From Minisyncoccota bacterium (GTDB taxonomy: Bacteria > Patescibacteriota > Minisyncoccia > Phycocordibacterales > SBAW01), in NCBI GenBank assembly GCA_035548815.1, contig DASZSF010000005.1:182177-246176 (forward strand): 64,000 nt of DNA. Reading direction: 5' to 3'. The notes under the pieces are model-generated. The model was not told the DNA's origin. It worked only from the letters and a program-made list of their open reading frames with translations, and did not search any database. Below are positions 8,400 to 55,046 of this stretch, piece by piece; within the stretch, counting starts at the first letter, position 1; each line of letters begins with the position of its first letter. A program made the translations under genes and the position numbers.

Positions 8400-10517
8400 C
8401 TAATTTCTAGCGTTGACCGGCCAAGTTTCTATCAGTAGCAACGTAGATTTATTTGGAAGTGAGCCCCAGATCTCTTCGGTCAAGAATGGCATGAACGGAT
8501 GCAAAAGCTTGAGCGAGTTTTCAAGCAAGTAGTAGAGCGTCGCGCCATATTCGGGCTTTCCTTTGCTTTCCTCCAAAATTTCTGCCGCAAAGCGGTCCCA
8601 CACGTAGTGATAGAGCTTATCTGCCGCCATGTAGATGCGATATTCTTCGATATCTTTTGTGACGTCAGCCGCGATTGCGTCGAACTCGTCTTTTAATTCA
8701 GATTTTATCTCGCCATCATGTTCTTGCGAGAGCACGAAACGCGCGATGTTCCAAATCTTATTGGCGAATTTTTTATACGCGCCAATTTTGCGCGGGTCGA
8801 GGTTTAAGTCGGTGCCTGGCGTATTGCCAACGATGAGTCCCATGCGCAGTGCGTCAGTGCCATATTCGTTCGAAATCTCAAGAGGTGAGATGACATTGCC
8901 CTTGCTCTTGCTCATCTTTTGCCCTTTTGCGTCGCGTACAAGCCCGTGCAGATAGATATCGCGGAATGGAACTTTGCCTGTGCGGTAGAGTCCGAGCATC
9001 AACATGCGCGCCACCCAGAAGAATAGGATGTCCGCGCCCGTTTCCATGACCGACGTCGGATAGAACGTTTTGAAATCATTGGAGTCTGGGTAGCCAAGCG
9101 TTGCAAATGGCCACTGGCCCGAGCTAAACCAGGTGTCGAAGGTGTCCGGGTCGCGTGTCCAACCGTCGCCCGGATCTTCAACCTGGATTTTCCACTCTTC
9201 GCTTTGCTTGCCGTGAGCGTCAGTCGAACGGCTCCATGCAGGAATTGGGATGCCCCAGACAATTTGGCGCGATATGTTCCAATCCTGAATATTTTCGAGC
9301 CAATGGAGCAATATTTTTTCGTGATTTTCGGTCAACACGCGGACGTCGCCATTCTTTACTGCCTCAATTGCTTTCTGTGCAAGCGGCTGCATCGAAATAA
9401 ACCACTGCGGCCGCACTTGCGGTTCTATTTCGCGGCCGCACTTGTAACAGACCGGGACTTCGTGGCTGTAGGTCTCGTCTATCTTTTCAACCAGACCCTT
9501 CGATTGGAGTTTTTCAACTATTTTTGCGCGGGCGTCTTTGATGTTCATGCCTTCAAACTCGCCAGCAATAGGAAGGAGCTTGCCGCGCCAATCAATCACT
9601 TGCTCGTAGGGCAAGTTGTGGCGCTTTGCGATGTCGAAGTCTATAGGGTCGTGCCACGGCGTAATCGTCATGACACCAGTACCCAACTCCATGTCGATAC
9701 TTTCGTCTTTGATGACAGTTGCAGTGATAGGGCCATTGATCCATTCAAGTTCAAATTGCTGGCCTTGGCTGTACTGCGCATAGCGTTTGTCGTCCGGATG
9801 CATGACAACGTACTTGTCGCCGAATTTTGTTTCAGGGCGGGCAGTTGCGATGGTGAACGGACCGTATTTTAAATAGTAGAATTTGTCGGTGCGGGTCTCG
9901 CGTTCAGTTTCCAAGTTGGAAAGCGACGTCTGATGTTTCGGACACCAGTTAACAATGCGCGGTGCTCGGTAGAGGAGTCCATCGTCGTTCAGTTTTTTGA
10001 ACGTGTCGTAGACGGTGTCGATAACGCGTTCATCAAGCGTAAAGACTTCGCGCGACCAGTCGCATGATGCGCCGAGCTGGCGGATTTGCCCTTCCATGAA
10101 TGATTTGTTCGAAAGGGTGAAGTCCATGATCTCTTTGTAGAGATCATCTGCCTGCATTTCAAAACGCGAACGCCCTTCTTTTTCGAGCTTCTTTTCGTAC
10201 ACCACCTGGGTTTCAAAACCTGCATGGTCGGCACCAGGCACCCACAATGTCTTCTTTCCGCGCATGCGTTCAAAACGCATCAGGATGTCTTGGACTGTCA
10301 CAAAGAGTGCGTGGCCTGCGTGGAGAGAGCCGTTCGCATTGGGCGGCGGCATGATGATGGTGAAAGGTTCCATCTCGACCTGCTTGCCCTGAGCGTCTAG
10401 TCGAAGGGGCAAATTGTCCGGGTTGAAAAAACCGCTTTCCTCCCACTTTTTGTAAATCTCGCCCTCAACGTTTTGGGGCTGGTAGGGGGTATTAAATTTG
10501 TCGGGCGCTTCGGACAT
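8400..10517 (-). CDS. valS: Valine--tRNA ligase (short form lacking C-terminal coiled coil)
   Basis: PPPNANGSLHAGHA (HIGH region), KMSKSKGN, and ValRS editing and anticodon-binding regions. ATG 10517 is preferred over the TTG at 10523. Confidence 0.85.
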   Translation of the reverse strand: MSEAPDKFNTPYQPQNVEGEIYKKWEESGFFNPDNLPLRLDAQGKQVEMEPFTIIMPPPNANGSLHAGHALFVTVQDILMRFERMRGKKTLWVPGADHAGFETQVVYEKKLEKEGRSRFEMQADDLYKEIMDFTLSNKSFMEGQIRQLGASCDWSREVFTLDERVIDTVYDTFKKLNDDGLLYRAPRIVNWCPKHQTSLSNLETERETRTDKFYYLKYGPFTIATARPETKFGDKYVVMHPDDKRYAQYSQGQQFELEWINGPITATVIKDESIDMELGTGVMTITPWHDPIDFDIAKRHNLPYEQVIDWRGKLLPIAGEFEGMNIKDARAKIVEKLQSKGLVEKIDETYSHEVPVCYKCGREIEPQVRPQWFISMQPLAQKAIEAVKNGDVRVLTENHEKILLHWLENIQDWNISRQIVWGIPIPAWSRSTDAHGKQSEEWKIQVEDPGDGWTRDPDTFDTWFSSGQWPFATLGYPDSNDFKTFYPTSVMETGADILFFWVARMLMLGLYRTGKVPFRDIYLHGLVRDAKGQKMSKSKGNVISPLEISNEYGTDALRMGLIVGNTPGTDLNLDPRKIGAYKKFANKIWNIARFVLSQEHDGEIKSELKDEFDAIAADVTKDIEEYRIYMAADKLYHYVWDRFAAEILEESKGKPEYGATLYYLLENSLKLLHPFMPFLTEEIWGSLPNKSTLLLIETWPVNARN

Positions 10518-30107: not shown

Positions 30108-31412
30108 ATGAAAATGACCAACTTCCAACTTATTTTTACGGGAGCCTTCGTCTTTTTTATTGTGTGCGGCCTTGTCGCATTTTCTCTCTACACCACTAAA
30201 AGCAACAACATCGGCAATGTGGTCGTGTGGGGCACGCTTGACGGCGGCACGATGTCGAAGCTTATCAATGACCTTAGCCAACAGGACAAGTCGTATCAGA
30301 GCGTCACGTATGTCGAACGCCCAGCCGCTACATTTGTCAGCGACGTTATAAACGCAATGGCCAGTGGCACAGGGCCTGACCTTGTGCTCATAAGCCAAGA
30401 CCAGCTCAACGCCTTTTCTAACAAGCTTTCTGTCATTCCATACAGCGCGGTATCGCAGTCAACCTACGTCTCTTCCTACATTGCAGAAAGCCAGCTCTTC
30501 TTGACTGCTGATGGCGCCTTCGCATTGCCATTTGTTATAAATCCTATGGTCTTGTATTGGAATCGCAATCTCGTGTCTTCGGCAGGATTGGGGCAGCCGC
30601 CAAAATATTGGGACGACTTGCTTACAACCGCGCAGAAGCTTACGGTCTTAGATGCAAACAACAATGTCAAAAAGAGTGCCATAGCGATGGGCTCGTGGGA
30701 CAATGTTGCGTATGCAAAGCAAATAGTGGCAGCGCTCTTTATGCAGGCGGGGGACAGTATTACACAATACGACCAGACGGGTGCACTTAGGTCCGTATTT
30801 GGCCAAACACCACAGGGGGCTCCCGAAAATCCAGCATCGTCAGCGTTGCAGTTTTATACCGAGTTCGCCAACCCATCAAAAGTTACCTATTCGTGGAATC
30901 GCTCACTGCCCAAATCAACCGACGCATTTACAGCAGGGGATGCGGCTCTCTATGTTGGGTTTGCAAGCGACTATCCGGATCTTTTGTCGCGAAACCCTAA
31001 CTTAAATATCGGGGTAGCGCTCCTGCCCCAGATCCAGGGCAATAGTACCGCCCTTACGTTCGGGCAGCTTACCGGCATTGCCATTCCGCGCACGGCGTTT
31101 AACCCAACTGGTGCGCTTACTATAGCAGAGAAACTTTCGGGCGCGACAGCCGTTGGTGCAGCTGCGGCAGCGTTCGGGTTTCCACCTGTACGCCTTGATG
31201 TGCCGACAGACACGTCAGCCAATGCGGCACAGGCCGTCTTTTACCAGTCATCGCTTATTGCACGCGGCTGGATCGACCCCGACTATGCCGCGAGCGATGC
31301 TATATTTAGGACGATGGTGGATGCGGTGGTCAGCAACAAGTCATTGCCTGACACGGCGGTGCAAGATGCCGCGCAGTCTCTCCAGGCGCTCATATCACAC
31401 ACAGGACAATGA
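30108..31412 (+). CDS. Membrane-anchored extracellular solute-binding-protein-like protein (SBP_bac_1-like)
   Basis: N-terminal TM anchor, then a sugar-type SBP pattern: VVVWGTLDGG, PDLVLISQDQL, PFVINPMVLYWNRNLVSSAGL..PPKYWDDLLTTAQKL. Stop overlaps the next ATG by 4 nt. Confidence 0.55.
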   Translation: MKMTNFQLIFTGAFVFFIVCGLVAFSLYTTKSNNIGNVVVWGTLDGGTMSKLINDLSQQDKSYQSVTYVERPAATFVSDVINAMASGTGPDLVLISQDQLNAFSNKLSVIPYSAVSQSTYVSSYIAESQLFLTADGAFALPFVINPMVLYWNRNLVSSAGLGQPPKYWDDLLTTAQKLTVLDANNNVKKSAIAMGSWDNVAYAKQIVAALFMQAGDSITQYDQTGALRSVFGQTPQGAPENPASSALQFYTEFANPSKVTYSWNRSLPKSTDAFTAGDAALYVGFASDYPDLLSRNPNLNIGVALLPQIQGNSTALTFGQLTGIAIPRTAFNPTGALTIAEKLSGATAVGAAAAAFGFPPVRLDVPTDTSANAAQAVFYQSSLIARGWIDPDYAASDAIFRTMVDAVVSNKSLPDTAVQDAAQSLQALISHTGQ

Positions 31413-31792
31413 AAACACTAGGCTATATCTCAACCACTGTGACCTTGATGTGCATGCCGCTTATCGCAGAGGCAGCTGGTGGCGGTGTGGGATTCCAAAA
31501 TCCTCTCAATGCCAGCACCATTTGCGGGGCGCTGAAGATATTTTTGGATGGACTCATGGCCCTTGCCGTTCCTGTGGCGGTAGTATTTTTGGTCTACGCG
31601 GGCTTTTTATTTGTATGGGCACGTGGAAATCAAGAAGCGCTGACAAAGGCAAAGAAGAATCTTTTTTACACGGTACTGGGTATTGCGATCTTTATGGGCG
31701 CGTGGCTTTTAGGACAAGTTGTGGCAAACACCTTTAACAGCCTGGCGAGCGGTGCAGGACAGCCAAATTCCCAGATAGGGCAATGTCAATAA
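31409..31792 (+). CDS. TrbC/VirB2-like pilin-family small membrane protein (paralog 1)
   Basis: Signal peptide, two TM helices flanking a basic loop (VYAGFLFVWARGNQEA...GIAIFMGAWLLGQVV), and an AGGA RBS. Confidence 0.45.
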   Translation: MKTLGYISTTVTLMCMPLIAEAAGGGVGFQNPLNASTICGALKIFLDGLMALAVPVAVVFLVYAGFLFVWARGNQEALTKAKKNLFYTVLGIAIFMGAWLLGQVVANTFNSLASGAGQPNSQIGQCQ

Positions 31793-31793
31793 T

Positions 31794-32099
31794 ATGAATA
31801 CACTTTTAAGCGCAGGTGATACATTTAAAGATGTCATTTCCCGCCTCATAGGGCTAATGAACCTGCTCATCTGGCCGCTCATAGGGTTTGCGATTCTTTT
31901 CTTCTTTTATGCGCTTGTCCGCTTCGTTTTCAAAGGCGGAGATTCGAAAGCTCGGATACAAGGCCGTCAGGCAATCTTATGGAGCTTAATAGCACTATTC
32001 GTTCTCTTTTCACTCTGGGGACTTGTGAGATTGCTCCAGACAGCCGTGTTTGTTGGCACTCCGGCACAAGAGCTCCAGAGGGGCACACAGCCGCTATAA
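31794..32099 (+). CDS. TrbC/VirB2-like pilin-family small membrane protein (paralog 2)
   Basis: Same 2-TM architecture (LIGFAILFFFYALVRFVFKGGDSKAR...LFSLWGLVRLL). Starts 1 nt after the previous stop. Confidence 0.45.
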   Translation: MNTLLSAGDTFKDVISRLIGLMNLLIWPLIGFAILFFFYALVRFVFKGGDSKARIQGRQAILWSLIALFVLFSLWGLVRLLQTAVFVGTPAQELQRGTQPL

Positions 32100-32164
32100 T
32101 CTATCCACACGAGGGTCTTGTGCGGGTGAGTGCGCTTGTTACACTATAAGTATATTAATTTAGA

Positions 32165-32527
32165 ATGAGTATGAAGAAGATTACTTCGATAGGCCTCCTT
32201 TTCCTTGCAGTTGCGCCGTTTATTGCGTCAGCACAATTATCAAACGTCCGAACTCTCATTGGCGCAGTCGGGAGCATCATCAACATGCTCATCCCGCTTT
32301 TGGTGGGAGTAGCGATTCTCGCGTTCTTCTGGGGTCTTATTAAATATATAAGTGGGGGAAAGGGAATGAAGGCAGGGCGTAACACCATGATCGCCGGTAT
32401 TGTTTCGTTCTTCATCATGGTATCGCTCTACGGCATTGTAAACTTCGCAGGTTCAGCACTTGGTATCAACCAAAACGGCCAGGGTAATGCTGTTCGCCCG
32501 AATGCGCCATCTATCCCGACCCAGTAG
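32165..32527 (+). CDS. TrbC/VirB2-like pilin-family small membrane protein (paralog 3)
   Basis: Signal peptide plus two TM helices with a GGKGMKAGR loop. Confidence 0.45.
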   Translation: MSMKKITSIGLLFLAVAPFIASAQLSNVRTLIGAVGSIINMLIPLLVGVAILAFFWGLIKYISGGKGMKAGRNTMIAGIVSFFIMVSLYGIVNFAGSALGINQNGQGNAVRPNAPSIPTQ

Positions 32528-32533
32528 TCAATC

Positions 32534-32788
32534 TTGAAAACTCTCGTCAATCTTTTCTCGAATATAATCATAAACCCACTCCTGGCATTACTGTTTGGAG
32601 TGGGTTTGTTGGTGTTTGTGTTCGGTGTTGCAGAATTTTTGTTTGAGTTTGATGTACGTGGCAACCAGACTGCACGAGAGGAGGGCAAAAAACATATGCT
32701 CTGGGGTGTTATAGGCATGTTTATCATGGCCTCAGCCTATAGCATCATTGAAGTTATCGCCTCAACGCTGGGAGCCAAACTTCCGTAA
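32534..32788 (+). CDS. TrbC/VirB2-like pilin-family small membrane protein (paralog 4)
   Basis: 84 aa with two TM helices and a DVRGNQTAREEGKK loop. Confidence 0.4.
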   Translation: MKTLVNLFSNIIINPLLALLFGVGLLVFVFGVAEFLFEFDVRGNQTAREEGKKHMLWGVIGMFIMASAYSIIEVIASTLGAKLP

Positions 32789-32872
32789 TTTTTGAAATGA
32801 AAAAGAAAACACCAGAGCCCTTGAGAGGGTTCTGGCGCTGGATGTTGTCAGAAAAGGATATGCAGGACGATT

Positions 32873-33337
32873 CTACGGCGGCAGGAGCTGGACGGAGCCA
32901 TTGAACTCCGTGTCCGCGGCCGCAACCGCTTCGATCGAATCCGGCATTGCCTGACACAGCCGGTTTGGATCTCGCAACTTTGGGTCGCAGATCAATATCT
33001 TGTCTTGATCTGCAGTTTTTCCCTTCTGCCAGACCCAGGCAAGGTGCCCCTGCAAGGTTAGACCCACCCTGCAGGTGCCCGATGGGTTCACCACGGTGCG
33101 AACCATGGTGAACCGCATGTTCCGCTGTACGCTGTCGCAGGCGGCGTTTGGCGTCTGCGACTGATTGGCTGTTGGGGGCCAGGCACCGGAATCCACAATC
33201 GCCATTCCCCAGATAAGGCAGCCAAAGAATATCAGGCCCCCTATCGCTAGGCCAACTACCATCATCATGCGAGACGCTCTCCGCGATGCAGCGACCATCA
33301 GCGGCGGAGCGAGACGGCTTGCATGTACGGGGTCCAT
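32873..33337 (-). CDS. Hypothetical membrane-anchored Cys-containing protein (GC3-rich)
   Basis: 154 aa with an N-terminal TM and 6 Cys in the soluble part. Its ATG overlaps the upstream stop (TAATG), indicating an operon. Confidence 0.45.
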   Translation of the reverse strand: MDPVHASRLAPPLMVAASRRASRMMMVVGLAIGGLIFFGCLIWGMAIVDSGAWPPTANQSQTPNAACDSVQRNMRFTMVRTVVNPSGTCRVGLTLQGHLAWVWQKGKTADQDKILICDPKLRDPNRLCQAMPDSIEAVAAADTEFNGSVQLLPP

Positions 33338-34560
33338 TAGTGGTCTCCTCCGTGATTGTCATGGCCGTGGTTACCGTTGGAGTCGTTTTTCTTGCCGCCT
33401 CCAAACGCTGCTGCCAAGCCTGCGGCAAAGGCGCCGAAGCCTCCGCCGATGTGCTTGGCTGTTTCAGTGGCTTCGGAATTGGTTTCAACCCGGATGATTC
33501 TCACATCCCGGTTGATGCCCTTTTCCTTGGCATTCAGCATCACTTTGTCCATTTCGTCCTGGAAGGTCGTCGTTGGCTTGCCGTCTACCATCGAGGCTTC
33601 GACATTCTTTCTTGCTGTACGTCGATAGATTTCCATCGTGATTTCGCCCTCGCGAGCTTCAGCATAGTCTGTCGGCAGCTTGAGAGTCCCAAGCACGACA
33701 CGTTCTACGGTTGCCCCGTATTGTTCTTCAAAGCTGCTGCCGCGCACGTCCCTGTCTTTGGGTTGTGAGGCTGCGAGGCCTGACTGGCCAGCCGGAGCCA
33801 CTTGTTCCGTGCCCGCAAGCGCTTCGATGAGCGATACCTGGATGTCAGGAATCTTGGCTGACAGCTCGTCCATGGTAACCTTGGCGACCTGTTCGCGCGC
33901 GTCGCTCTCGAAGATATCCAACGCTCCTTCGTTGATTGTTTCTGTTGAGTGGCTGATGTGCACCAACAGCAGCGGACCGAATGTACGCCAACGAACCGTC
34001 GGCTCGGGGAAGGTGGCGGTCAGCCCGTCCATTGTGGGGAACGAGATGGACCGGCCGAACGTACTACTTCGAAGCGATATGTAGTCGGTGTCCGGATTCA
34101 CAACCTCCCACGGCAAGCGGATATTGAACCAGCCTTGTGTAAATACATGCACGCGGCCGGTGAATATGTCCATCGCCATCGCTGCAGTCACTTTTGGCAC
34201 GGGCACCGACAGGTACCACGTGATGCATGAAAACTCAGCGATGAATAGACCGAGCGCCATTCCAATCCGGATTTTCGGTGGGAAGACGACCAGAAGATTC
34301 ATGATGTACGCATCGGGCACCAACACGATGAGCCCGATGACTGCCCATATGAGCAGTCGATCCCATGTATTCCCGGCTTTGCCGGTTATCTTGAGGCCAT
34401 AGCGCATGGCGATTTCTTGAAGCTCTGCCGGAGTTTTCTTTTGGATTCCGGCAGACTGAGAGGTTGGCATGGCTGGCGAATTCTTCGCCGAAGGCCATGC
34501 ATAGACAGCGCACGCAGCCGCGACGGCCACGAGCGAGAGGATGATGATAGGCAGAAGCAT
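33337..34560 (-). CDS. Membrane protein with possible SPFH/band-7-like domain and Gly/His-rich tail (GC3-rich)
   Basis: N-terminal TM helices, a GRVHVFTQGWFNIRLPWEVV segment resembling stomatin GRxxxxGPGLxFIxP, a coiled coil, and a C-terminal GGGFGAF...HGHDNHGGDH. Start placed at MLLP, which has a GAAAGGGG RBS. Confidence 0.4.
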   Translation of the reverse strand: MLLPIIILSLVAVAAACAVYAWPSAKNSPAMPTSQSAGIQKKTPAELQEIAMRYGLKITGKAGNTWDRLLIWAVIGLIVLVPDAYIMNLLVVFPPKIRIGMALGLFIAEFSCITWYLSVPVPKVTAAMAMDIFTGRVHVFTQGWFNIRLPWEVVNPDTDYISLRSSTFGRSISFPTMDGLTATFPEPTVRWRTFGPLLLVHISHSTETINEGALDIFESDAREQVAKVTMDELSAKIPDIQVSLIEALAGTEQVAPAGQSGLAASQPKDRDVRGSSFEEQYGATVERVVLGTLKLPTDYAEAREGEITMEIYRRTARKNVEASMVDGKPTTTFQDEMDKVMLNAKEKGINRDVRIIRVETNSEATETAKHIGGGFGAFAAGLAAAFGGGKKNDSNGNHGHDNHGGDH

Positions 34561-34733
34561 GTTGTCTACCCCTTTCTCAAAGGTCTGTGCGGCAGCGCCG
34601 CAGCGTGGTGAATGTCTGTCCATTCCAGAGCCGAAGCCATGGATGGTATTCCTTAGAATTATATCACAATAAAAGCTCTTTTGTCAAGCTAAAAAAGATA
34701 CAGAAAATAAGCGTTTTTTGGAAATTTGACGAG

Positions 34734-34815
34734 TGCTGGGGAGAGGACTTGAACCTCCATGGATTGCTCCGCCTGCTCCTAAGGCAGGTGCGTATACCAA
34801 TTCCGCCACCCCAGC
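34734..34815 (-). tRNA. tRNA-Leu (anticodon TAG)
   Basis: Reverse complement reads GCTGGGGTGGCGGAATTGGTATACGCACCTGCCTTAGGAGCAGG + long variable arm + GGAGG-TTCAAGT-CCTCT CCCCAGC A. Confidence 0.85.
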
Positions 34816-34829
34816 ATATGTGTAAACGG

Positions 34830-34902
34830 TGCGCCCACGAGGGCTCGAACCTCGGACCATCTCCTTAAGAGGGAGTTGCTCTACCAACTGAGCTATGGGC
34901 GC
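34830..34902 (-). tRNA. tRNA-Lys (anticodon CTT)
   Basis: Reverse complement reads GCGCCCATAGCTCAGTTGGTAGAGCAACTCCCTCTTAAGGAGATGGTCCGAGGTTCGAGCCCTCGTGGGCGCA. Confidence 0.8.
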
Positions 34903-34933: not shown

Positions 34934-35800
34934 TTAAAAAAGCCTGCCTTTTTGGAATCGCCATACTATTGGCGGGTAGGTAATGTAGCGTTCCACAAAG
35001 TGGGATTTAAATGTAGAGAATCCTTTCCATTCACGCGGTTCGCCTGGTTGCCAAAAATACATGAAGACAAGATTTTTAATGCCGCGTTTTAGCGAGTCTT
35101 TAAACCAATAGTCAACGAGCCCTGTCATTGCTTCTGTGCTGCGTGCCTCTTCGTATATAAACGTGCACATACGGGTGGTGCTATTGTACGTCGGGGAGGT
35201 AATGATAGCGTTTCCTGCAACTATAGCGTTTGTTTCATTATTTTCCACAACAAAAAATTCTATATGCGGCCGCACTTCTGGTAATGCATACTGGCGTCCA
35301 AGCGTGGCAAGAAGGTAGACGCCGACGTGCTTGTAGGTACGGCTCTTTTTGTACGCCGCTTTGTACTCTTCGAATGACACATGTTTTATGGAATGCGTCC
35401 GCCCCAGATGTTTGTCCCACTTTTTTGCATTGCGTTGCGCGTCTTTGCTCCACCTAAGGCGGTAATTCGAGTCTGTGAGTTCAACCAAACCATCTTTCCG
35501 CCACGACTGTGGGCGCCATATACTGTGCCAATGCGGCGGGACGTCCGTGCGGCGCACGCGTTTCCACATTATTATTCTGTTATAGGCGAGCGCTCCAGAA
35601 TGAGCATGGGAAAGATCAGGTTCAGCATCGCCACTAAAGAGTTCAAAACATATAGGCCATAAACACCAACGGGTGCTCGTTGGTGTACGTTCGCGCCGGC
35701 ATATCGGCGGAGGCAGGGCTATCATGCCAAATTCAGGCCATAGTTCAGGCGGGGCGAACCACTCCGGCGCTGTCGTATCGTGCTCCTCTTCTGTCCCCAT
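34934..35800 (-). CDS. Fem/BioF2-like GNAT-fold acyltransferase family protein (paralog B)
   Basis: 288 aa with C-terminal ...WKGFSTFKSHFVE resembling the FemABX GxxxFKxxFG tail. Its ATG overlaps the upstream paralog stop (TAATG). Confidence 0.35.
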   Translation of the reverse strand: MGTEEEHDTTAPEWFAPPELWPEFGMIALPPPICRRERTPTSTRWCLWPICFELFSGDAEPDLSHAHSGALAYNRIIMWKRVRRTDVPPHWHSIWRPQSWRKDGLVELTDSNYRLRWSKDAQRNAKKWDKHLGRTHSIKHVSFEEYKAAYKKSRTYKHVGVYLLATLGRQYALPEVRPHIEFFVVENNETNAIVAGNAIITSPTYNSTTRMCTFIYEEARSTEAMTGLVDYWFKDSLKRGIKNLVFMYFWQPGEPREWKGFSTFKSHFVERYITYPPIVWRFQKGRLF

Positions 35801-36645
35801 TATTTTCTTAGTATAGTGCCGCGCAAAAATTTGAACAAAGGAGGTTGGTAGAGCAGGTAGTCTGTGACGAATTGCGCTTTGAAATGTGAGATGCCTTTTC
35901 CGCGTTTGGTGCCGCTCTCATGCGGCGGGACGAATGCTCCGAAATGGAGCACTTCAACATGGCGGGAAAGGGCGTCAGCGAACCAATGGTCAATGAGCCC
36001 GAGCATGACATTGTCCATGCGCTCTTCTTTGAGATAAAAACCGCAGCTGTATGCGCTTGCGCGTCCTTTGCAGCCATCAAACACGGCATGGCCTCCCACT
36101 ATGACGCCGTCGCGTATGCGCTCTGCTCCCCACATCTGTACAGAATCAGGGAATCGCTCAAGGCGAGCTTGTAATTTTTTGAGCTCGTATGTCGGTATCT
36201 CAGAGGCGACGGTGCTTTTGCTATATGCCCGAGCGAACTCATCAAATGAAAGGGAGATTACTCTATATTTTTTATCGAGCAATTCGTCGCGCCACTTTTT
36301 TCGATAGTAGCGAGCAGTTTTTGACCAGCGGGTGAAATAACCGGGCGCGAGCTTGTGATAGCCGATATATATGGACGAGCGTAGCCAGGGTAGCTGCAAC
36401 CATCCGCGCGGCACATCCATGCGCGTTCTCCGATGCCAAACGGCGATGCGGTTTGGACCAGGCGGCGTGTCATGAAGAAGGGGTTCGGTGTTGCTCCGAT
36501 ACTCTTCAAAATATATGGGCCATATGCCATATCGCGCACCGACGGGTGATGCGCCAACAGGCTCTGGTTTTGTAGTGTCTCTAAAGAGTCGGTAGAACAG
36601 ATATTCGGGCCATTCAAAAAGAGAGAGCAGGCGACTATCTTCCAT
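35800..36645 (-). CDS. Fem/BioF2-like GNAT-fold acyltransferase family protein (paralog A)
   Basis: Paralog of 34934..35800 with C-terminal ...GKGISHFKAQFVT. Start abuts the 3' end of tRNA-Leu(TAA). Confidence 0.35.
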   Translation of the reverse strand: MEDSRLLSLFEWPEYLFYRLFRDTTKPEPVGASPVGARYGIWPIYFEEYRSNTEPLLHDTPPGPNRIAVWHRRTRMDVPRGWLQLPWLRSSIYIGYHKLAPGYFTRWSKTARYYRKKWRDELLDKKYRVISLSFDEFARAYSKSTVASEIPTYELKKLQARLERFPDSVQMWGAERIRDGVIVGGHAVFDGCKGRASAYSCGFYLKEERMDNVMLGLIDHWFADALSRHVEVLHFGAFVPPHESGTKRGKGISHFKAQFVTDYLLYQPPLFKFLRGTILRK

Positions 36646-36730
36646 GGTGCCGGGGGTGGGAATCGAACCCACACGACCTTGCGGTCTGGGGATTTTAAGT
36701 CCCCTATGTCTACCATTTCATCACCCCGGC
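36645..36730 (-). tRNA. tRNA-Leu (anticodon TAA), CCA encoded
   Basis: Reverse complement reads GCCGGGGTGATGAAATGGTAGACATAGGGGACTTAAAATCCCC + long variable arm + GTGGG-TTCGATT-CCCAC CCCCGGC A CCA. Confidence 0.85.
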
Positions 36731-36736
36731 AAAAAC

Positions 36737-36811
36737 TGGAGGCCACGGAGGGATTCGCACCCTCGCATAACGGTTTTGCAGACCGTCGCGTTGCTTCTTC
36801 GCCACGTGGCC
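36737..36811 (-). tRNA. tRNA-Cys (anticodon GCA), CCA encoded
   Basis: Reverse complement reads GGCCACGTGGCGAAGAAGCAACGCGACGGTCTGCAAAACCGT...GAGGG-TGCGAAT-CCCTC CGTGGCC T CCA. Confidence 0.8.
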
Positions 36812-45083: not shown

Positions 45084-45169
45084 GCGTCGGTGGTAGAGTG
45101 GTCAATTACACTTGGCTGTAAACCAAGCGCCTCACGGCTACGTAGGTTCGAATCCTACCCGGCGCACCA
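45084..45169 (+). tRNA. tRNA-Tyr (anticodon GTA), CCA encoded
   Basis: GCGTCGGTGGTAGAGTGGTCAATTACACTTGGCTGTAAACCAAG + long variable arm + GTAGG-TTCGAAT-CCTAC CCGGCGC A CCA. Confidence 0.8.
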
Positions 45170-45195
45170 AACAACAGTGCTACAATTATTGTGTA

Positions 45196-46137
45196 ATGAA
45201 AGTGTTTAAGAGCCCGCTCTTTTGGTTTGGCGTATTTTTTCTGACACCTGCGGCAGTTGTGTTCGGGGCTGATGCGCTGACGCCCTGCGGTACGCTCGCG
45301 TTTACGGGGTCGTATGGCCCTGGGTACTTTCTCTCGGCGACCAGCTGTAACTTTTGCTATTTAGCCAAGCTCATCCAAAATATCGTGAATTTTTTGCTGA
45401 TGGTCGCCATCCCGATTTCCGTGGCGATGTTTGCTTGGGCAGGCGTTATGTACTTTACGGCAGGGGGGAATCCGGCGCGGGCTGAACGTGGGCGCAAGAT
45501 TTTTGCTGCAGTATTGTTGGGCTTCTGCATCGCGCTTGGTGCCTGGCTGTTCGTGCAGGTGTTTCTCCAAACGGTAACGAATCCTAATTTCTTCAGCGCA
45601 AACAACTGGATAAATCTTGATTGCAGTACCTTCAATGATCAGCGTTCCCGCAATGTGTCCATCAGCACGGTGCTTTCTGGAAACGGACTTGCGCCTTCGA
45701 CTGTGACAAGCGACCCAACGAGTCCGACTCTAGCGCCACCGCCTGACAGTGGTGAAATTCAGGCAGCTATTTCACAAGCAACAAGTCGTTATATTGGCAC
45801 AGTAACCACTGCCGGTCCAGGTGGGGGAAATTTAGCATGCGCATGGGCGGTAAATAATATTCTCGGCAGCGCAGGCATTTCATCAATTGATGGCGATAGT
45901 GTGCCGGACATGGAGACAGTGCTCAAATCTGGAAGAGGGCAGCCCGTTGACCAGTCGCAAGGCCAGCCGGGTGATATCGTTATACAGGGGAACCAATGGC
46001 ATGTCGGAATTTGCCAAGATGTTGGGTGCACCCGAGTTATATCAAACTCCTCTGGCGCGCGCAGTTTTACGAACGACCAAACGATGTCTGCGTTTTCAAG
46101 AGGTGCGCAAAGCCGTGTATACCGTGTAGTAAATTAA
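45196..46137 (+). CDS. Pilin-like (TrbC/VirB2-type) N-terminal module fused to CHAP/NlpC-P60-like putative cell-wall hydrolase domain
   Basis: The N-terminus has a signal peptide, four Cys and two TM helices (IQNIVNFLLMVAIPISVAMFAWAG...GAWLFVQVF), homologous to the 31.4-kb paralogs. A Ser/Thr/Pro linker follows. The C-terminus has the Cys...His pair GNLACAWAVNNIL...PGDIVIQGNQWHVGI typical of CHAP. Confidence 0.45.
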   Translation: MKVFKSPLFWFGVFFLTPAAVVFGADALTPCGTLAFTGSYGPGYFLSATSCNFCYLAKLIQNIVNFLLMVAIPISVAMFAWAGVMYFTAGGNPARAERGRKIFAAVLLGFCIALGAWLFVQVFLQTVTNPNFFSANNWINLDCSTFNDQRSRNVSISTVLSGNGLAPSTVTSDPTSPTLAPPPDSGEIQAAISQATSRYIGTVTTAGPGGGNLACAWAVNNILGSAGISSIDGDSVPDMETVLKSGRGQPVDQSQGQPGDIVIQGNQWHVGICQDVGCTRVISNSSGARSFTNDQTMSAFSRGAQSRVYRVVN

Positions 46138-46138
46138 T

Positions 46139-46552
46139 ATGAAACGCTCTACAGCAACCCTCATAGTTATAGCAGTCCTCGGCGGTCTGCTTGCGTGCGT
46201 TATATATTCTGGGAAAGTCACTCACCTTCTTCGACAGAATACTTTTTTTGCTGCAGTTGGGACGGCGCAATCAGTAAAAACAGTCGCAGGTGTTAAGGCT
46301 GCTGTGCAGGCTCATGTACCGGCAGGTATTTCAATGATATTTGGAGCAACCAGCATGGAAGATATATATGCGCTTCAAGTGTGGGGCGCTGACGACATGG
46401 GGGGAGAAGCGCTTTTGATGTACGACAGCACAAACAATGAGTGGAATTTCGTGTCGTGGGGCGGCGGAGCCTGGAGCGCAGAAGGCCTCACGCGGTCAGA
46501 AGGAGTGCCACAAGACACAGCAGAGGCGCTGCTCGGCGGGCTGCCCAACTAA
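46139..46552 (+). CDS. Hypothetical small membrane protein between the two pilin-fusion genes
   Basis: 137 aa with an N-terminal TM and a Trp/Gly-rich soluble part. ATG lies 1 nt after the upstream stop. Confidence 0.4.
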   Translation: MKRSTATLIVIAVLGGLLACVIYSGKVTHLLRQNTFFAAVGTAQSVKTVAGVKAAVQAHVPAGISMIFGATSMEDIYALQVWGADDMGGEALLMYDSTNNEWNFVSWGGGAWSAEGLTRSEGVPQDTAEALLGGLPN

Positions 46553-46555
46553 TGT

Positions 46556-47632
46556 ATGAAGCGACTCATTCCATCGCGCACAACGCTCATCTCCGCCGGA
46601 GTATTCTTCTTTGGCGTGCCGCTCTATGTGTGGGCGGCGCAAACTGGGCTGGTTCCATGCGGCACTGCCAGCTTTACCGGTTTGTATGATTCTAATTACT
46701 ATTTGCAGGCAACCAATTGCAATCTGTGCTACTTTGCACAGCTGATTCAAAATATCGTCAACTTTTTGCTCATGGTCACCATTCCGATTTCGGTGGCGAT
46801 GTTTGCTTGGGCAGGCTTCAAATATCTTACAGCGGGCGGGGATGTAAAGAGAATAAGCCGCGCACATAATATTTTTTCTTCCGTATTTATCGGTTTTTGC
46901 ATCGCGCTCGGTGCATGGCTGTTTGTGCAGGTTGTTTTGCAAGCAGTCACAAGCAGCAACTATTTGCCCAGCAGCTTTTTTAACTTGAGCTCCTGCAGCC
47001 AGCAAAATGACATACGCCGGCGTGATGAAGCGCTAAGTACTGTATTGAGCGGGAATGGCCTTGCACCAACTGTTACAGGAGCGCCCTCAAGTGGTGGCGG
47101 AGTATTCTGTCCGAGCGGGTATGAGCTTTACCTTGGTTCTTGTTACAACCCTACGACGAACGATATTGTTAGCGCAACGATCGGTTCTTCTGCTGCGAGC
47201 ACAAGAGGTCGTGTCGTAATTACTAACCCGGATGGCACGCAGACCGAGATGATCGACGGCTCACCTTCGTGGCGAAGAAACAATCCGGGAAATATGATAG
47301 CAGGGGCTGGCCAGTACCAGCCGATAGGAATGGATGGAGGATTCGCAGTCTTTGCGAGCTACGAGGACGGGTTCAACGCAATGCTCGCAAACCTTAAAAG
47401 CCCTCTATACCAAAATGGCAACATGACGATAGCAGCTGCTCTCTATAGATGGGCGCCACCCATTCCAGGGTCAGGAAATGACCCTGTTAAATATGCAGCG
47501 TTCGTACAAAGCACAACAGGAATCCCTTCAAGCACAGTAATAAATAACCTCACCCAGGAACAGCTTGTTGCAGTGGCAACAGCGATGCGCACACAAGAAG
47601 GTTGGAGTGTTGGGAGGACAATTTCCCGCTAA
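46556..47632 (+). CDS. Pilin-like N-terminal module fused to a different, unassigned C-terminal domain
   Basis: The N-terminal ~150 aa are paralogous to 45196..46137, with ~88% DNA identity over 46748-46817 vs 45376-45445 and a shared STVLSGNGLAP junction. The C-terminus is unrelated (WRRNNPGNMIAG...GFAVFASYEDGFNAML...YRWAPP). Confidence 0.45.
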   Translation: MKRLIPSRTTLISAGVFFFGVPLYVWAAQTGLVPCGTASFTGLYDSNYYLQATNCNLCYFAQLIQNIVNFLLMVTIPISVAMFAWAGFKYLTAGGDVKRISRAHNIFSSVFIGFCIALGAWLFVQVVLQAVTSSNYLPSSFFNLSSCSQQNDIRRRDEALSTVLSGNGLAPTVTGAPSSGGGVFCPSGYELYLGSCYNPTTNDIVSATIGSSAASTRGRVVITNPDGTQTEMIDGSPSWRRNNPGNMIAGAGQYQPIGMDGGFAVFASYEDGFNAMLANLKSPLYQNGNMTIAAALYRWAPPIPGSGNDPVKYAAFVQSTTGIPSSTVINNLTQEQLVAVATAMRTQEGWSVGRTISR

Positions 47633-53847: not shown

Positions 53848-53934
53848 TGGTGCCGGGAGGGAGAATCGAACTCCCATGATGTTGCCATCGCGGGATTTTG
53901 AGTCCCGTGCGTCTACCAATTCCGCCATCCCGGC
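53848..53934 (-). tRNA. tRNA-Leu (anticodon CAA), CCA encoded
   Basis: Reverse complement reads GCCGGGATGGCGGAATTGGTAGACGCACGGGACTCAAAATCCCG + long variable arm + GGGAG-TTCGATT-CTCCC TCCCGGC A CCA. Confidence 0.85.
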
Positions 53935-53978
53935 TTATGCACCTCAAATACGAGGCTAGCTATGCTAGAATATCGCTA

Positions 53979-55046
53979 ATGTCAGAGTTTTACAATAACG
54001 CGATTTTTTGGGTCGAGACCGAAAAGATCAAACCAAACCCATATCAGCCCCGCCGCGAATTCGACCAGGCAAAGCTTGAAGACTTAGCAAAATCCATCCG
54101 CCAATACGGCGTCATCCAACCGCTCACCGTCACACGAAAAGAATTTGAAAAGCAGGATGGAGGCTTAGCCACAGAATATGAACTTATTGCCGGAGAACGC
54201 CGTTTGCGCGCAGCGCGTTTGGCAGGTGTCGCCCAGGTGCCTGTCATCATCCGCGCCGACTACGACGATGACAAGACTAAGCTTGAAGTCGCTATCATCG
54301 AAAACCTTCAGCGCGAAGACCTAAACCCGATGGATCGTGCGCATGCATTTGCACGCCTTGTAAACGAGTTTGGGTTTAAGCACGTGCAGGTTGCAGAGAA
54401 AGTTGGGAAAAGCCGCGAATATGTCTCAAACACTATTCGCTTGCTCGCGTTGCCGCAGGATGTGCAAACAGCATTAACCGAAGGCAAAATTTCCGAAGGC
54501 CATGCGCGCCCGCTGTTGATGCTTGTTGATAGGCCGCAAGAGCAGAGCGTGCTGTTCCGCGAAATCATGCAGAAGAAGCTCACGGTGCGCGATACGGAAT
54601 CCATTGCACGCCGCATCGCTATAGACCGCGTCCGCCGCAAAGAATATCTGTACAGCCCTGAAATTATAGACATGGAACGCGAGCTGACAGAAGCTCTTGG
54701 TACGCGTGTGATGATCGAACCAAAAGAAAACGGCGGCAAACTCTCTATCGATTTTATGGGCGAAGATGATCTTCGTATTCTGTTTGCTTCTCTTGCAAGC
54801 CGCATTGCACAAGGTCCCGCTGCGCAGAAACCAACATCGCCTCAACACGGAGAATCTTCTGCTGAAGATTCTCCTATGTCCGGTGCCGTCGCACCTACCA
54901 ATGTTTCGGACGACGTTGTTTCTGCTTCGCCTGAAGCTATAACTCCCGCACCTGACGAAAAGGCCTCCGAACTCTTAGACGACCGCAGTAAAGAAGAAAA
55001 AGAGAACGATGAGAATTCGTTCGACCCTAGCAATTTTTCTCTATGA
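53979..55046 (+). CDS. parB: Chromosome partitioning protein ParB/Spo0J with acidic Ser-rich C-terminal extension
   Basis: IQPLTV...YELIAGERRLRAARLAG ParB box and HTH region. Start moved to the ATG downstream of the tRNA. Confidence 0.85.
   Translation: MSEFYNNAIFWVETEKIKPNPYQPRREFDQAKLEDLAKSIRQYGVIQPLTVTRKEFEKQDGGLATEYELIAGERRLRAARLAGVAQVPVIIRADYDDDKTKLEVAIIENLQREDLNPMDRAHAFARLVNEFGFKHVQVAEKVGKSREYVSNTIRLLALPQDVQTALTEGKISEGHARPLLMLVDRPQEQSVLFREIMQKKLTVRDTESIARRIAIDRVRRKEYLYSPEIIDMERELTEALGTRVMIEPKENGGKLSIDFMGEDDLRILFASLASRIAQGPAAQKPTSPQHGESSAEDSPMSGAVAPTNVSDDVVSASPEAITPAPDEKASELLDDRSKEEKENDENSFDPSNFSL

Follow-up and report, generated by a model that had tools for sequence, protein, structure and literature searches.

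We analysed a conserved operon in a 64,000-nucleotide (nt) stretch of DNA from a Minisyncoccota bacterium (GenBank assembly GCA_035548815.1, contig DASZSF010000005.1, positions 182,177 to 246,176 of the forward strand), hereafter called the window. In this operon a gene for a membrane-anchored protein resembling solute-binding proteins (SBPs) is followed directly by four small pilin-like genes, which we name A to D (Table 1). The closest homologs of the SBP-like protein carry the names Candidatus Adlerbacteria, Paceibacterota or Parcubacteria, which places the window in an Adlerbacteria-like member of the Patescibacteria (CPR), class Paceibacteria. The neighbouring genes in the window are housekeeping genes (gyrA, IF2, RbfA, ClpB, TopA, FtsZ, tRNA genes and ParB), which identifies the surroundings as a chromosomal core region and excludes a mobile element.

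Gene map and encoded proteins

The coordinates and strands of the SBP-like gene and the four small genes, as listed in an earlier note made from the sequence alone, proved to be exactly right. The genes, described there as fused, are separate and co-transcribed, and the stop codon of the SBP-like gene does overlap the start of paralog A in an ATGA, as had been reported. For the gaps among the small genes the note gave 1-64 nt; the actual junctions are 1 nt (A to B), 65 nt (B to C) and 6 nt (C to D). The operon of five genes stands, with the correction that the conserved unit starts one gene earlier, at a methyltransferase gene that had been overlooked. Around the B-C spacer we found a sigma-70-like match (GTTACA-17-TAGAAT at 32138-32166; consensus match only), and a regulatory RNA element or an internal promoter may reside in the spacer. 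The operon ends in a stem (32769-32785) followed by TAATTTTTGA, likewise a consensus match only, and the genes after this terminator-like hairpin run on the opposite strand. The block neither contains nor adjoins a gene for an ATPase or a polytopic membrane protein, and no sensor kinase or RRNPP regulator is encoded in the operon.

Table 1. Genes and sequence features of the block (positions in the window; aa, amino acids; SAM, S-adenosylmethionine)
Feature	Position	Strand	Basis or remark
Class I SAM-dependent methyltransferase, 180 aa	29472..30014	+	Pfam; first gene of the conserved block
Membrane-anchored SBP-like protein, 434 aa	30108..31412	+	SBP_bac_8, AlphaFold2, Foldseek
Pilin-like paralog A, 127 aa	31409..31792	+	PF18895; start overlaps SBP stop
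Pilin-like paralog B, 101 aa	31794..32099	+	PF18895
B-C spacer, 65 nt	32100..32164	+	Sole long junction of the operon; promoter-like match
Pilin-like paralog C, 120 aa	32165..32527	+	Iterated profiles; PF18895 below cutoff
Pilin-like paralog D, 84 aa, TTG start	32534..32788	+	PF18895
Terminator-like hairpin and T-run, operon end	32769..32795	+	Consensus match only

The SBP-like protein matched the Pfam family SBP_bac_8 with 72.5 bits (cutoff 27). Its AlphaFold2 model (predicted local distance difference test (pLDDT) 89.2, predicted template modelling score (pTM) 0.85) displayed a complete two-lobe fold of the MalE/CUT1 type, preceded by an N-terminal helix (aa 5-29) and a low-confidence linker of ~8 residues leading to the first strand of the fold. 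A Foldseek search of the PDB with this model returned Atu4361, CpMnBP1, a cyclic maltosyl-maltose binding protein and MalE as top matches, with target-normalised TM-scores of ~0.7-0.8, E-values of about 1e-21 and 15-20% identity. Both the transmembrane anchor and the SBP fold that had been proposed for this protein were thereby confirmed. When a profile of 33 family members was compared with the PDB sequences, it detected CUT1-type sugar-binding proteins weakly (best 5ci5, E 4e-15). The family comprises 1,630 clusters (50% identity level) at E<=1e-30, and its profile, run against 1.8 billion proteins, collected 7,545 at E<=0.001; in our judgement a CUT1-type SBP profile would be expected to collect more, which suggests that the family is well separated from the mainstream SBPs of ATP-binding cassette (ABC) transporters. 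Invariant aromatic and polar residues include W41, D91, Y150, N152, W168, W263 and N264. The protein presumably binds a ligand.

The anchor helix of the SBP is as conserved as its globular part (mean column entropy 1.93 versus 1.98). Conservation reaches 95% for F6, 94% for Q7, 84% for F14, 83% for G21 and 93% for F25, and the conserved positions F6, F14, G21 and F25 lie on one face of the helix. Such one-sided conservation would point to a specific helix-helix contact in the membrane. The motif [ST][NT]FQ[LI] at the N-terminus looked pilin-like at first, and a prepilin signal and a lipobox were considered and rejected. In an alignment column count over 268 family members, F6 is preceded by T, N, K, P or I, and V, F, L or I occupy position +5. 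Gly at the former position and Glu at the latter rank outside the six commonest residues, so that a class III (prepilin) signal peptide is absent. A conserved lipobox Cys was not found either, any Cys in the region being present in 32 of the 268 sequences.

The four small proteins are paralogs with core identities of 28-36%. Three of them exceeded the cutoff (26.6 bits) of the Pfam family PF18895 (T4SS_pilin, for type IV secretion system (T4SS) pilins), with 34.9 bits for A, 32.7 for B and 34.0 for D, and C scored 18.2 bits, below the cutoff. In iterated profile searches each of the four proteins found the others at E<=1e-20, and C was connected to A, B and D at E 1e-22 to 1e-29. Paralog A in addition scored 24.7 bits with the TrbC/VirB2 family PF04956, under the cutoff of 27.9, and 24.9 bits, also below cutoff, with the NCBIfam Mbov_0395 pilin-like model from a mycoplasma integrative and conjugative element; for many of its orthologs precomputed Pfam matches exist to both PF18895 and PF04956. 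The TrbC/VirB2-like nature that the earlier note ascribed to these proteins was thus upheld, and so were their two membrane helices. A signal peptide, claimed for all four, appears to be confined to A and C, where the hydrophobic leader as read from the sequence ends in AxA-like sites (in C ..ASA before QL). B and D, and likewise their orthologs, begin with the first membrane helix.

The loops between the helices are rich in R/K and G (ARGNQ in A, KGGDSK in B, SGGKG in C and VRGNQ in D). Paralog A was modelled by AlphaFold2 as a long two-helix hairpin (pLDDT 75) with helices at 38-70 and 75-115 and a 4-residue turn. Its N-terminal tail carries an NPL motif and Cys39 and its C-terminal tail Cys126; across 29 orthologs C39 never varies and at least 90% have C126, and the signal peptide is followed by a low-complexity spacer whose length ranges from ~0 to 40 residues. 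T-pilin and TrbC are head-to-tail cyclised. A disulfide between the external tails of paralog A would imitate this cyclisation, which at present is speculation. Further motifs distinguish the ortholog groups of B (WGLIALFV..FS.WG), C (FFWGL..YI) and D (IINP and GK.HMLWG..GMFIM). Holin, bacteriocin, phage or defence matches of A to D were absent from Pfam, NCBIfam and PHROGs, where the sole PHROGs match of the small proteins was to one family of unknown function; an identity of this kind, which for holins had been raised as a possible refutation, was therefore rejected.

The methyltransferase has no membrane segment and matched Pfam Methyltransf_31/11/25 at E 1e-15 to 1e-17; none of the NCBIfam models reached its cutoff.

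Conservation of the block in related loci

To follow the operon across species, two sets of loci were compiled: 80 loci from GTDB species genomes, and 80 loci from metagenome contigs that were seeded with the most divergent SBPs. Linkage was counted where more than 1.6 kb of DNA was available downstream of the SBP gene, with no de-replication between the two sets. In all 116 loci of this kind the SBP gene is followed directly by pilin-like open reading frames (ORFs) on the same strand, two to eight in number, so that the synteny search suggested by the earlier note gave a uniform answer. In the GTDB set at least three such ORFs were present in 69/69 loci; arrays of four predominated (46 loci), followed by arrays of five (18 loci) and of six or seven (4 loci), and a single locus had three. 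The metagenome set gave 47/47 with two to eight ORFs, six or seven being the commonest. This arrangement is far beyond chance.

Paralogs A to D form four separate orthologous groups, and their order A-B-C-D is constant in the GTDB loci. Separate groups with motifs of their own, a fixed order and 36-50% ortholog identity fit distinct subunits and not interchangeable variants. The spacing of the genes is conserved as well: the median gaps in 47 species are 0 nt from SBP to A, 1 nt from A to B, 71 nt from B to C and 12 nt from C to D, and the B-C junction is consistently long in the 47 related loci, the other junctions measuring 0-19 nt. In 74 of the 79 GTDB loci the SBP gene is immediately preceded by a methyltransferase homolog, at a median distance of 18.5 nt (<=30 nt in 43/46). 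It is absent from the Zambryskibacteria-like loci L080 and L085, which keep the SBP gene together with seven pilin-like genes.

Evolutionary rates were expressed as identity to the window proteins across 46 species. The median identities of 52% for the SBP, 48% for A, 36% for B, 47% for C, 50% for D and 60% for the methyltransferase compare with 81% for gyrA, 66% for IF2, 59% for RbfA and 57% for NifS. Judged by these sequence identities, the block proteins are constrained orthologs rather than hypervariable surface antigens.

On both sides of the block, towards gyrA as well as towards RbfA, gene content varies among the loci, and an insertion inside the block was seen in one locus only (L129). 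In one locus, L016, the gyrA flank and the RbfA/IF2 flank are both replaced and the six-gene block is intact. A tandem duplication in L157 (8173-12770), also found in L158, reads methyltransferase, SBP1, a pilin-like gene, SBP2 and three pilin-like genes.

Several loci showed further particularities. Pilin-like ORFs flank the SBP gene on both sides in L155. One subclade (L017, L021, L023, L024, L026, L027, L035, L054 and L055) has an extra pilin-like ORF of 71-103 aa, nearest to paralog D, between the SBP gene and A; in other lineages paralog C is duplicated, and the Zambryskibacteria-like arrays contain six to eight genes. L016 carries a TrmB-family (sugar-specific regulator) helix-turn-helix gene (8564-9346) immediately upstream of its methyltransferase gene and, 6 kb upstream, a gene for a surface protein of 754 aa that combines Ig-like with peptidoglycan-binding domains. 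The TrmB-family regulator was rejected as a general partner of the block, being present in L016 alone.

Genomic context and possible roles of the operon

The statement of the earlier note that no permease or ATPase lies nearby holds for the window, which contains no LSGGQ or EAA-loop motif in any frame, and it extends to the relatives, in which an ABC permease next to the SBP gene would have contradicted the proposal. No EAA-loop ORF was detected within +-10 kb of ~160 related loci. ORFs combining Walker-A and LSGGQ motifs were limited in the same intervals to UvrA in three loci (by Pfam in two, inferred from size in the third) and, at a distance of 6.4 kb, a single ABC protein of the exporter type. 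The large Walker-A ORFs that were examined there correspond to housekeeping or UvrA/UvrB/ABC-exporter genes, several of them assigned from position only and a 710-aa ORF of L040 left without identification. In the window itself, the ORFs of at least 500 aa encode MurJ, LepA, a class I aminoacyl-tRNA synthetase, GyrA, IF2, ClpB, Pif1, RelA and TopA; a VirB4-like protein is not among them.

We favour the reading, at a probability of about one half, that the SBP-like gene and the VirB2-type array form a cell-envelope operon in which the SBP is a membrane-proximal glycan-binding partner and not an ABC receptor. The block would represent a conserved envelope operon of Paceibacteria that encodes a methyltransferase, an SBP-like protein and four differentiated hairpin proteins of the VirB2/TrbC type, with A to D corresponding, in Paceibacteria, to the tandem PF18895 'pilin' array that in Saccharimonadia is embedded in the T4SS gene cluster and here is detached from virB4 and joined to the SBP-like gene. 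Kept at the membrane by its short tether and conserved anchor helix, the SBP would serve as an oligosaccharide- or glycan-binding receptor and as a docking or gating partner of a VirB2-type structure. The MalE-like domain would supply the carbohydrate recognition in this partnership and would deliver no substrate to an ABC importer. The set of four subunits is fixed, translation is coupled, one face of the anchor helix is conserved, the tether is short, and SBP and pilin-like genes have been duplicated together; these features suggest a partnership in the membrane. The SBP is accordingly presumed to associate physically with the hairpin proteins, A to D may form a filament, and the operon may be linked to a T4SS ATPase.

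As the earlier note proposed, it is plausible that the SBP acts as a ligand- or host-recognition component of a pilus-like structure. The tether of ~8 residues and the moderate conservation, at a rate similar to RbfA and NifS, make a distal, host-specific tip adhesin less likely, and a membrane-proximal receptor or docking role fits the SBP better. An adhesin at the tip of a long pilus would hold only if the anchor helix itself were pulled into the fibre in the manner of a pilin.

Several observations weigh against the envelope-operon reading. VirB4, VirB6 and VirD4 are absent within 30 kb in the window, and none was seen within 10 kb in the related loci; with no T4SS genes nearby, it is family membership that provides the whole of the link to a T4SS, and the 'pilin' in the name of PF18895 is itself an inferred function. 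A Foldseek search with the paralog A model against the PDB, conjugative pilins included, gave no match at E<=0.001, simple hairpins offering little signal to this kind of comparison, and nothing relevant emerged when the PDB sequences were searched with a paralog A profile. The rate of the SBP, controlled for gyrA and Lactamase_B distances, covaries with those of B to D at a partial r of 0.24-0.35 and with that of A at -0.01, which is weak and stands without a proper null distribution. Finally, the whole neighbourhood (S1, Lactamase_B, gyrA ... RbfA, IF2, DUF4446, NifS) is syntenic among the genomes. Part of the linkage between SBP and array could therefore be inherited gene order, and linkage alone is no proof of function; nevertheless, the intact block amid changing flanks, the duplication in L157 and the persistence of SBP and array in Zambryskibacteria-like loci after loss of the methyltransferase gene go further than inherited gene order.

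The SBP could also be an ordinary ABC receptor that serves a CUT1-type importer encoded elsewhere and shares a transcript with the array because both are needed at the host interface. In fold and Pfam family it agrees with the CUT1 oligosaccharide SBPs, its invariant aromatic and polar residues are compatible with a preserved sugar site, SBPs of monoderms are membrane-tethered, and orphan SBPs with a distant permease have a precedent in PrgZ of pCF10 (PMC6540685). We nevertheless consider this role unlikely, given that an importer-type permease or ATPase is missing throughout the intervals searched, that the profile matches at E<=0.001 are, by our reckoning, few for the CUT1 type, and that the ATGA overlap, the anchor-helix face and the duplication of SBP with pilin-like genes exceed the needs of co-regulation. 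Less likely still is a complex independent of any T4SS, in which the SBP and the four hairpins, with eight membrane helices, would build a new SBP-dependent uptake channel or signal transducer. The four distinct single-gene subunits in fixed order and under translational coupling would suit such a complex, as would the conserved anchor helix and the short tether that holds the SBP at the membrane surface, the absence of T4SS genes nearby, and the two hairpin proteins out of four that lack the signal peptide typical of VirB2/TrbC pilins. However, an energy-coupling component is not evident, a number of hairpin genes that ranges from two to eight by lineage is odd for a transporter of fixed stoichiometry, and homologous arrays occur within T4SS clusters in Saccharimonadia.

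Lower again in probability, and close to a long shot, we place the idea that the SBP is the substrate-capturing front end of a VirB2-type apparatus for the uptake of host glycans or nutrients, with the MalE-like receptor docking on a heteromer of the four hairpins. If true, this would be an SBP-dependent import route distinct from those of ABC, tripartite ATP-independent periplasmic (TRAP) and tripartite tricarboxylate (TTT) transporters, and the relaxase-less 'T4SS' of Patescibacteria, which is essential in Saccharibacteria, or its Paceibacteria derivative, would serve uptake. SBP folds have been recruited for non-transport roles in other bacteria, and the SBP fold might here have no free ligand and act as an assembly factor, that is, as a scaffold or chaperone for the hairpins or as a wall-glycan anchor, with the methyltransferase modifying one of the components. 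The position of the SBP and methyltransferase genes ahead of the structural genes would agree with this, and so would the moderate rate of the SBP, steady over lineages with probably different hosts. We rate it the least probable of these explanations: the two-lobe fold is complete and confidently modelled, the invariant aromatics lie in loops that usually line the cleft, and some lineages retain SBP and array without the methyltransferase.

Preferring the envelope operon, we compared it with known systems. Like the CUT1 SBPs (E. coli MalE, T. litoralis 1eu8, which is a trehalose/maltose-binding protein, A. fabrum Atu4361 4qrz and CpMnBP1 4r9f), the window SBP belongs to SBP_bac_8/SBP_bac_1, has a two-lobe fold and contains the motifs ..YWNR.. 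and ..P.YW(D/N)... It differs from them in its low identity (15-20%), in its conserved anchor helix, in its coupling to VirB2-like genes and in the absence of a cognate permease or ATPase nearby in the ~160 loci.

To our knowledge, the bindosome (Bas) is the sole case of surface sugar-binding proteins that are organised with small pilin-like proteins. In Sulfolobus/Saccharolobus solfataricus, also a monoderm, it combines SBPs that have a hydrophobic N-terminal helix with the small pilin-like BasABC (PMC3047682). In contrast to the operon described here, Bas belongs to the type IV pilus (TFF) superfamily with class III signal peptides on both SBPs and BasABC, comprises an ATPase (BasE) and a platform protein (BasF), and its SBPs feed ABC transporters (PMC3047682). 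The small proteins of the window are instead of the VirB2 type, a class III motif is lacking in the SBP, and genes for an ATPase or a platform protein do not adjoin the block. The bindosome is the nearest architectural analogy, its defining features being absent here.

An SBP-fold protein is reportedly linked to T4SS function in the ChvE-VirA system of Agrobacterium. The sugar-binding protein ChvE sends its signal to the vir regulon; unlike the window SBP, it works on a sensor kinase and is not co-transcribed with pilin genes. PrgZ is an orphan SBP tied to conjugation on a conjugative plasmid of a monoderm, yet it is a family 5 peptide-binding SBP, imports pheromone via a borrowed chromosomal Opp permease and is not co-transcribed with pilins (PMC6540685). 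By analogy, PrgZ and ChvE indicate that SBP folds can serve T4SS-linked functions outside a local ABC operon.

Arrays of PF18895 genes are known from Patescibacteria. A survey found VirB2-like proteins (PF04956, PF18895) in 1,948 Patescibacterial assemblies, with the pilin gene near virB4 in 1,135 and away from virB4 in ~40% of the assemblies having both; the 441 arrays that it counted comprise 2-11 pilin genes each, share 25% identity on average and reach their highest abundance in Microgenomatia and Saccharimonadia, not in Paceibacteria (Quinonero-Coronel et al. 2025, PMC12102498). In Southlakia epibionticum a series of pilin genes was described as essential (Wang et al. 2023, PMC10633639), and according to the listed part of the gene table the PF18895 genes in the run SEML1_0014-0019 adjoin VirB6, PrgI and VirB4-like genes and are marked as essential (PMC10633639). 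In cultured Paceibacteria, genes with the T4SS-pilin domain are among the top-expressed genes for secreted proteins (PMC10936435). The role of the Saccharibacterial T4SS has been called 'completely unknown', with uptake raised as one possibility (PMC11665869).

The window array resembles these arrays as a chromosomal set of two-helix PF18895 paralogs of low identity (28-36%, compared with 25% in the survey) from the same phylum. Unlike the Southlakia array, which adjoins VirB6/VirB4-like genes, it lies more than 30 kb from a VirB4-like gene. It also differs in that an SBP gene always precedes it, usually together with a methyltransferase gene, and in its four fixed orthologs in constant order. 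An SBP annotation is not among the listed pilin-cluster rows of the Southlakia gene table (PMC10633639), an SBP_bac_1/8 gene is not among the listed supplementary rows of the study on cultured Paceibacteria, and the main texts of PMC12102498 and PMC10633639 do not mention an SBP. A literature search of incomplete coverage found no pairing of a pilin, VirB2 or TrbC of Patescibacteria/Parcubacteria with an SBP. The earlier claim of a non-standard arrangement therefore holds in part: multi-pilin PF18895 arrays had been described before, and the obligatory coupling to an SBP, usually with a methyltransferase, appears to be undescribed.

Further loci in the window and significance

A second pilin-domain cluster, overlooked by the earlier note, lies 12 kb downstream of the operon (45112-47632, plus strand). 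It encodes proteins of 341 and 358 aa with PF18895 near the N-terminus (35.5 and 34.4 bits) and a C-terminal extension of ~200 aa without a Pfam match, and between them a 137-aa membrane-anchored ORF. Since the start of the first ORF overlaps tRNA-Tyr (45084-45169), its true start is probably a later Met (MKVFKSP...). The C-terminal region of this first protein contains Cys/His motifs (CAWAVNN ... WHVGIC) and looks like a putative cysteine peptidase or amidase.

Just past the operon, a convergent gene pair on the minus strand (32873-34623) encodes a 428-aa protein that matches Band_7/SPFH below the cutoff (22.7 bits) and has a C-terminal tail rich in Gly and His; the stop of its gene shares 1 nt with the start of an ORF for a membrane-anchored protein of 154 aa. 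Both genes were rejected as members of the system, as the 154-aa gene was found in only ~22 loci and the 428-aa gene in only ~10, a patchy distribution that places the pair outside the conserved block. Adjacent to each other on the minus strand (34934-36672) are two paralogous ORFs of 288 and 290 aa without Pfam matches even at E<=1. They are bracketed by tRNAs, on one side Leu and Lys (34733-34902) and on the other Leu and Cys (36645-36811). The 290-aa ORF overlaps tRNA-Leu at its start, and homologs of the pair occur in 22 of 79 related loci. The window further contains a ParB gene (53898-55046, plus strand), 13 tRNA genes and many genes of replication and translation. Its cumulative GC skew climbs monotonically, which puts both the replication origin and the terminus outside the window.

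Patescibacteria, which live on other cells, account for a large part of the diversity of bacteria; T4SS-like genes and VirB2-like arrays are widespread among them, and such arrays are essential in the one species tested. The annotation of proteins like the one described here as an 'ABC substrate-binding protein' calls for caution, as this one probably has no ABC partner. In Paceibacteria, the largest class, the invariable pairing of SBP and array provides a concrete biochemical handle, and the finding would add a bacterial, VirB2-based parallel to the archaeal bindosome. The ligand of the soluble SBP domain could reveal what the pilin-like structure touches or transports.

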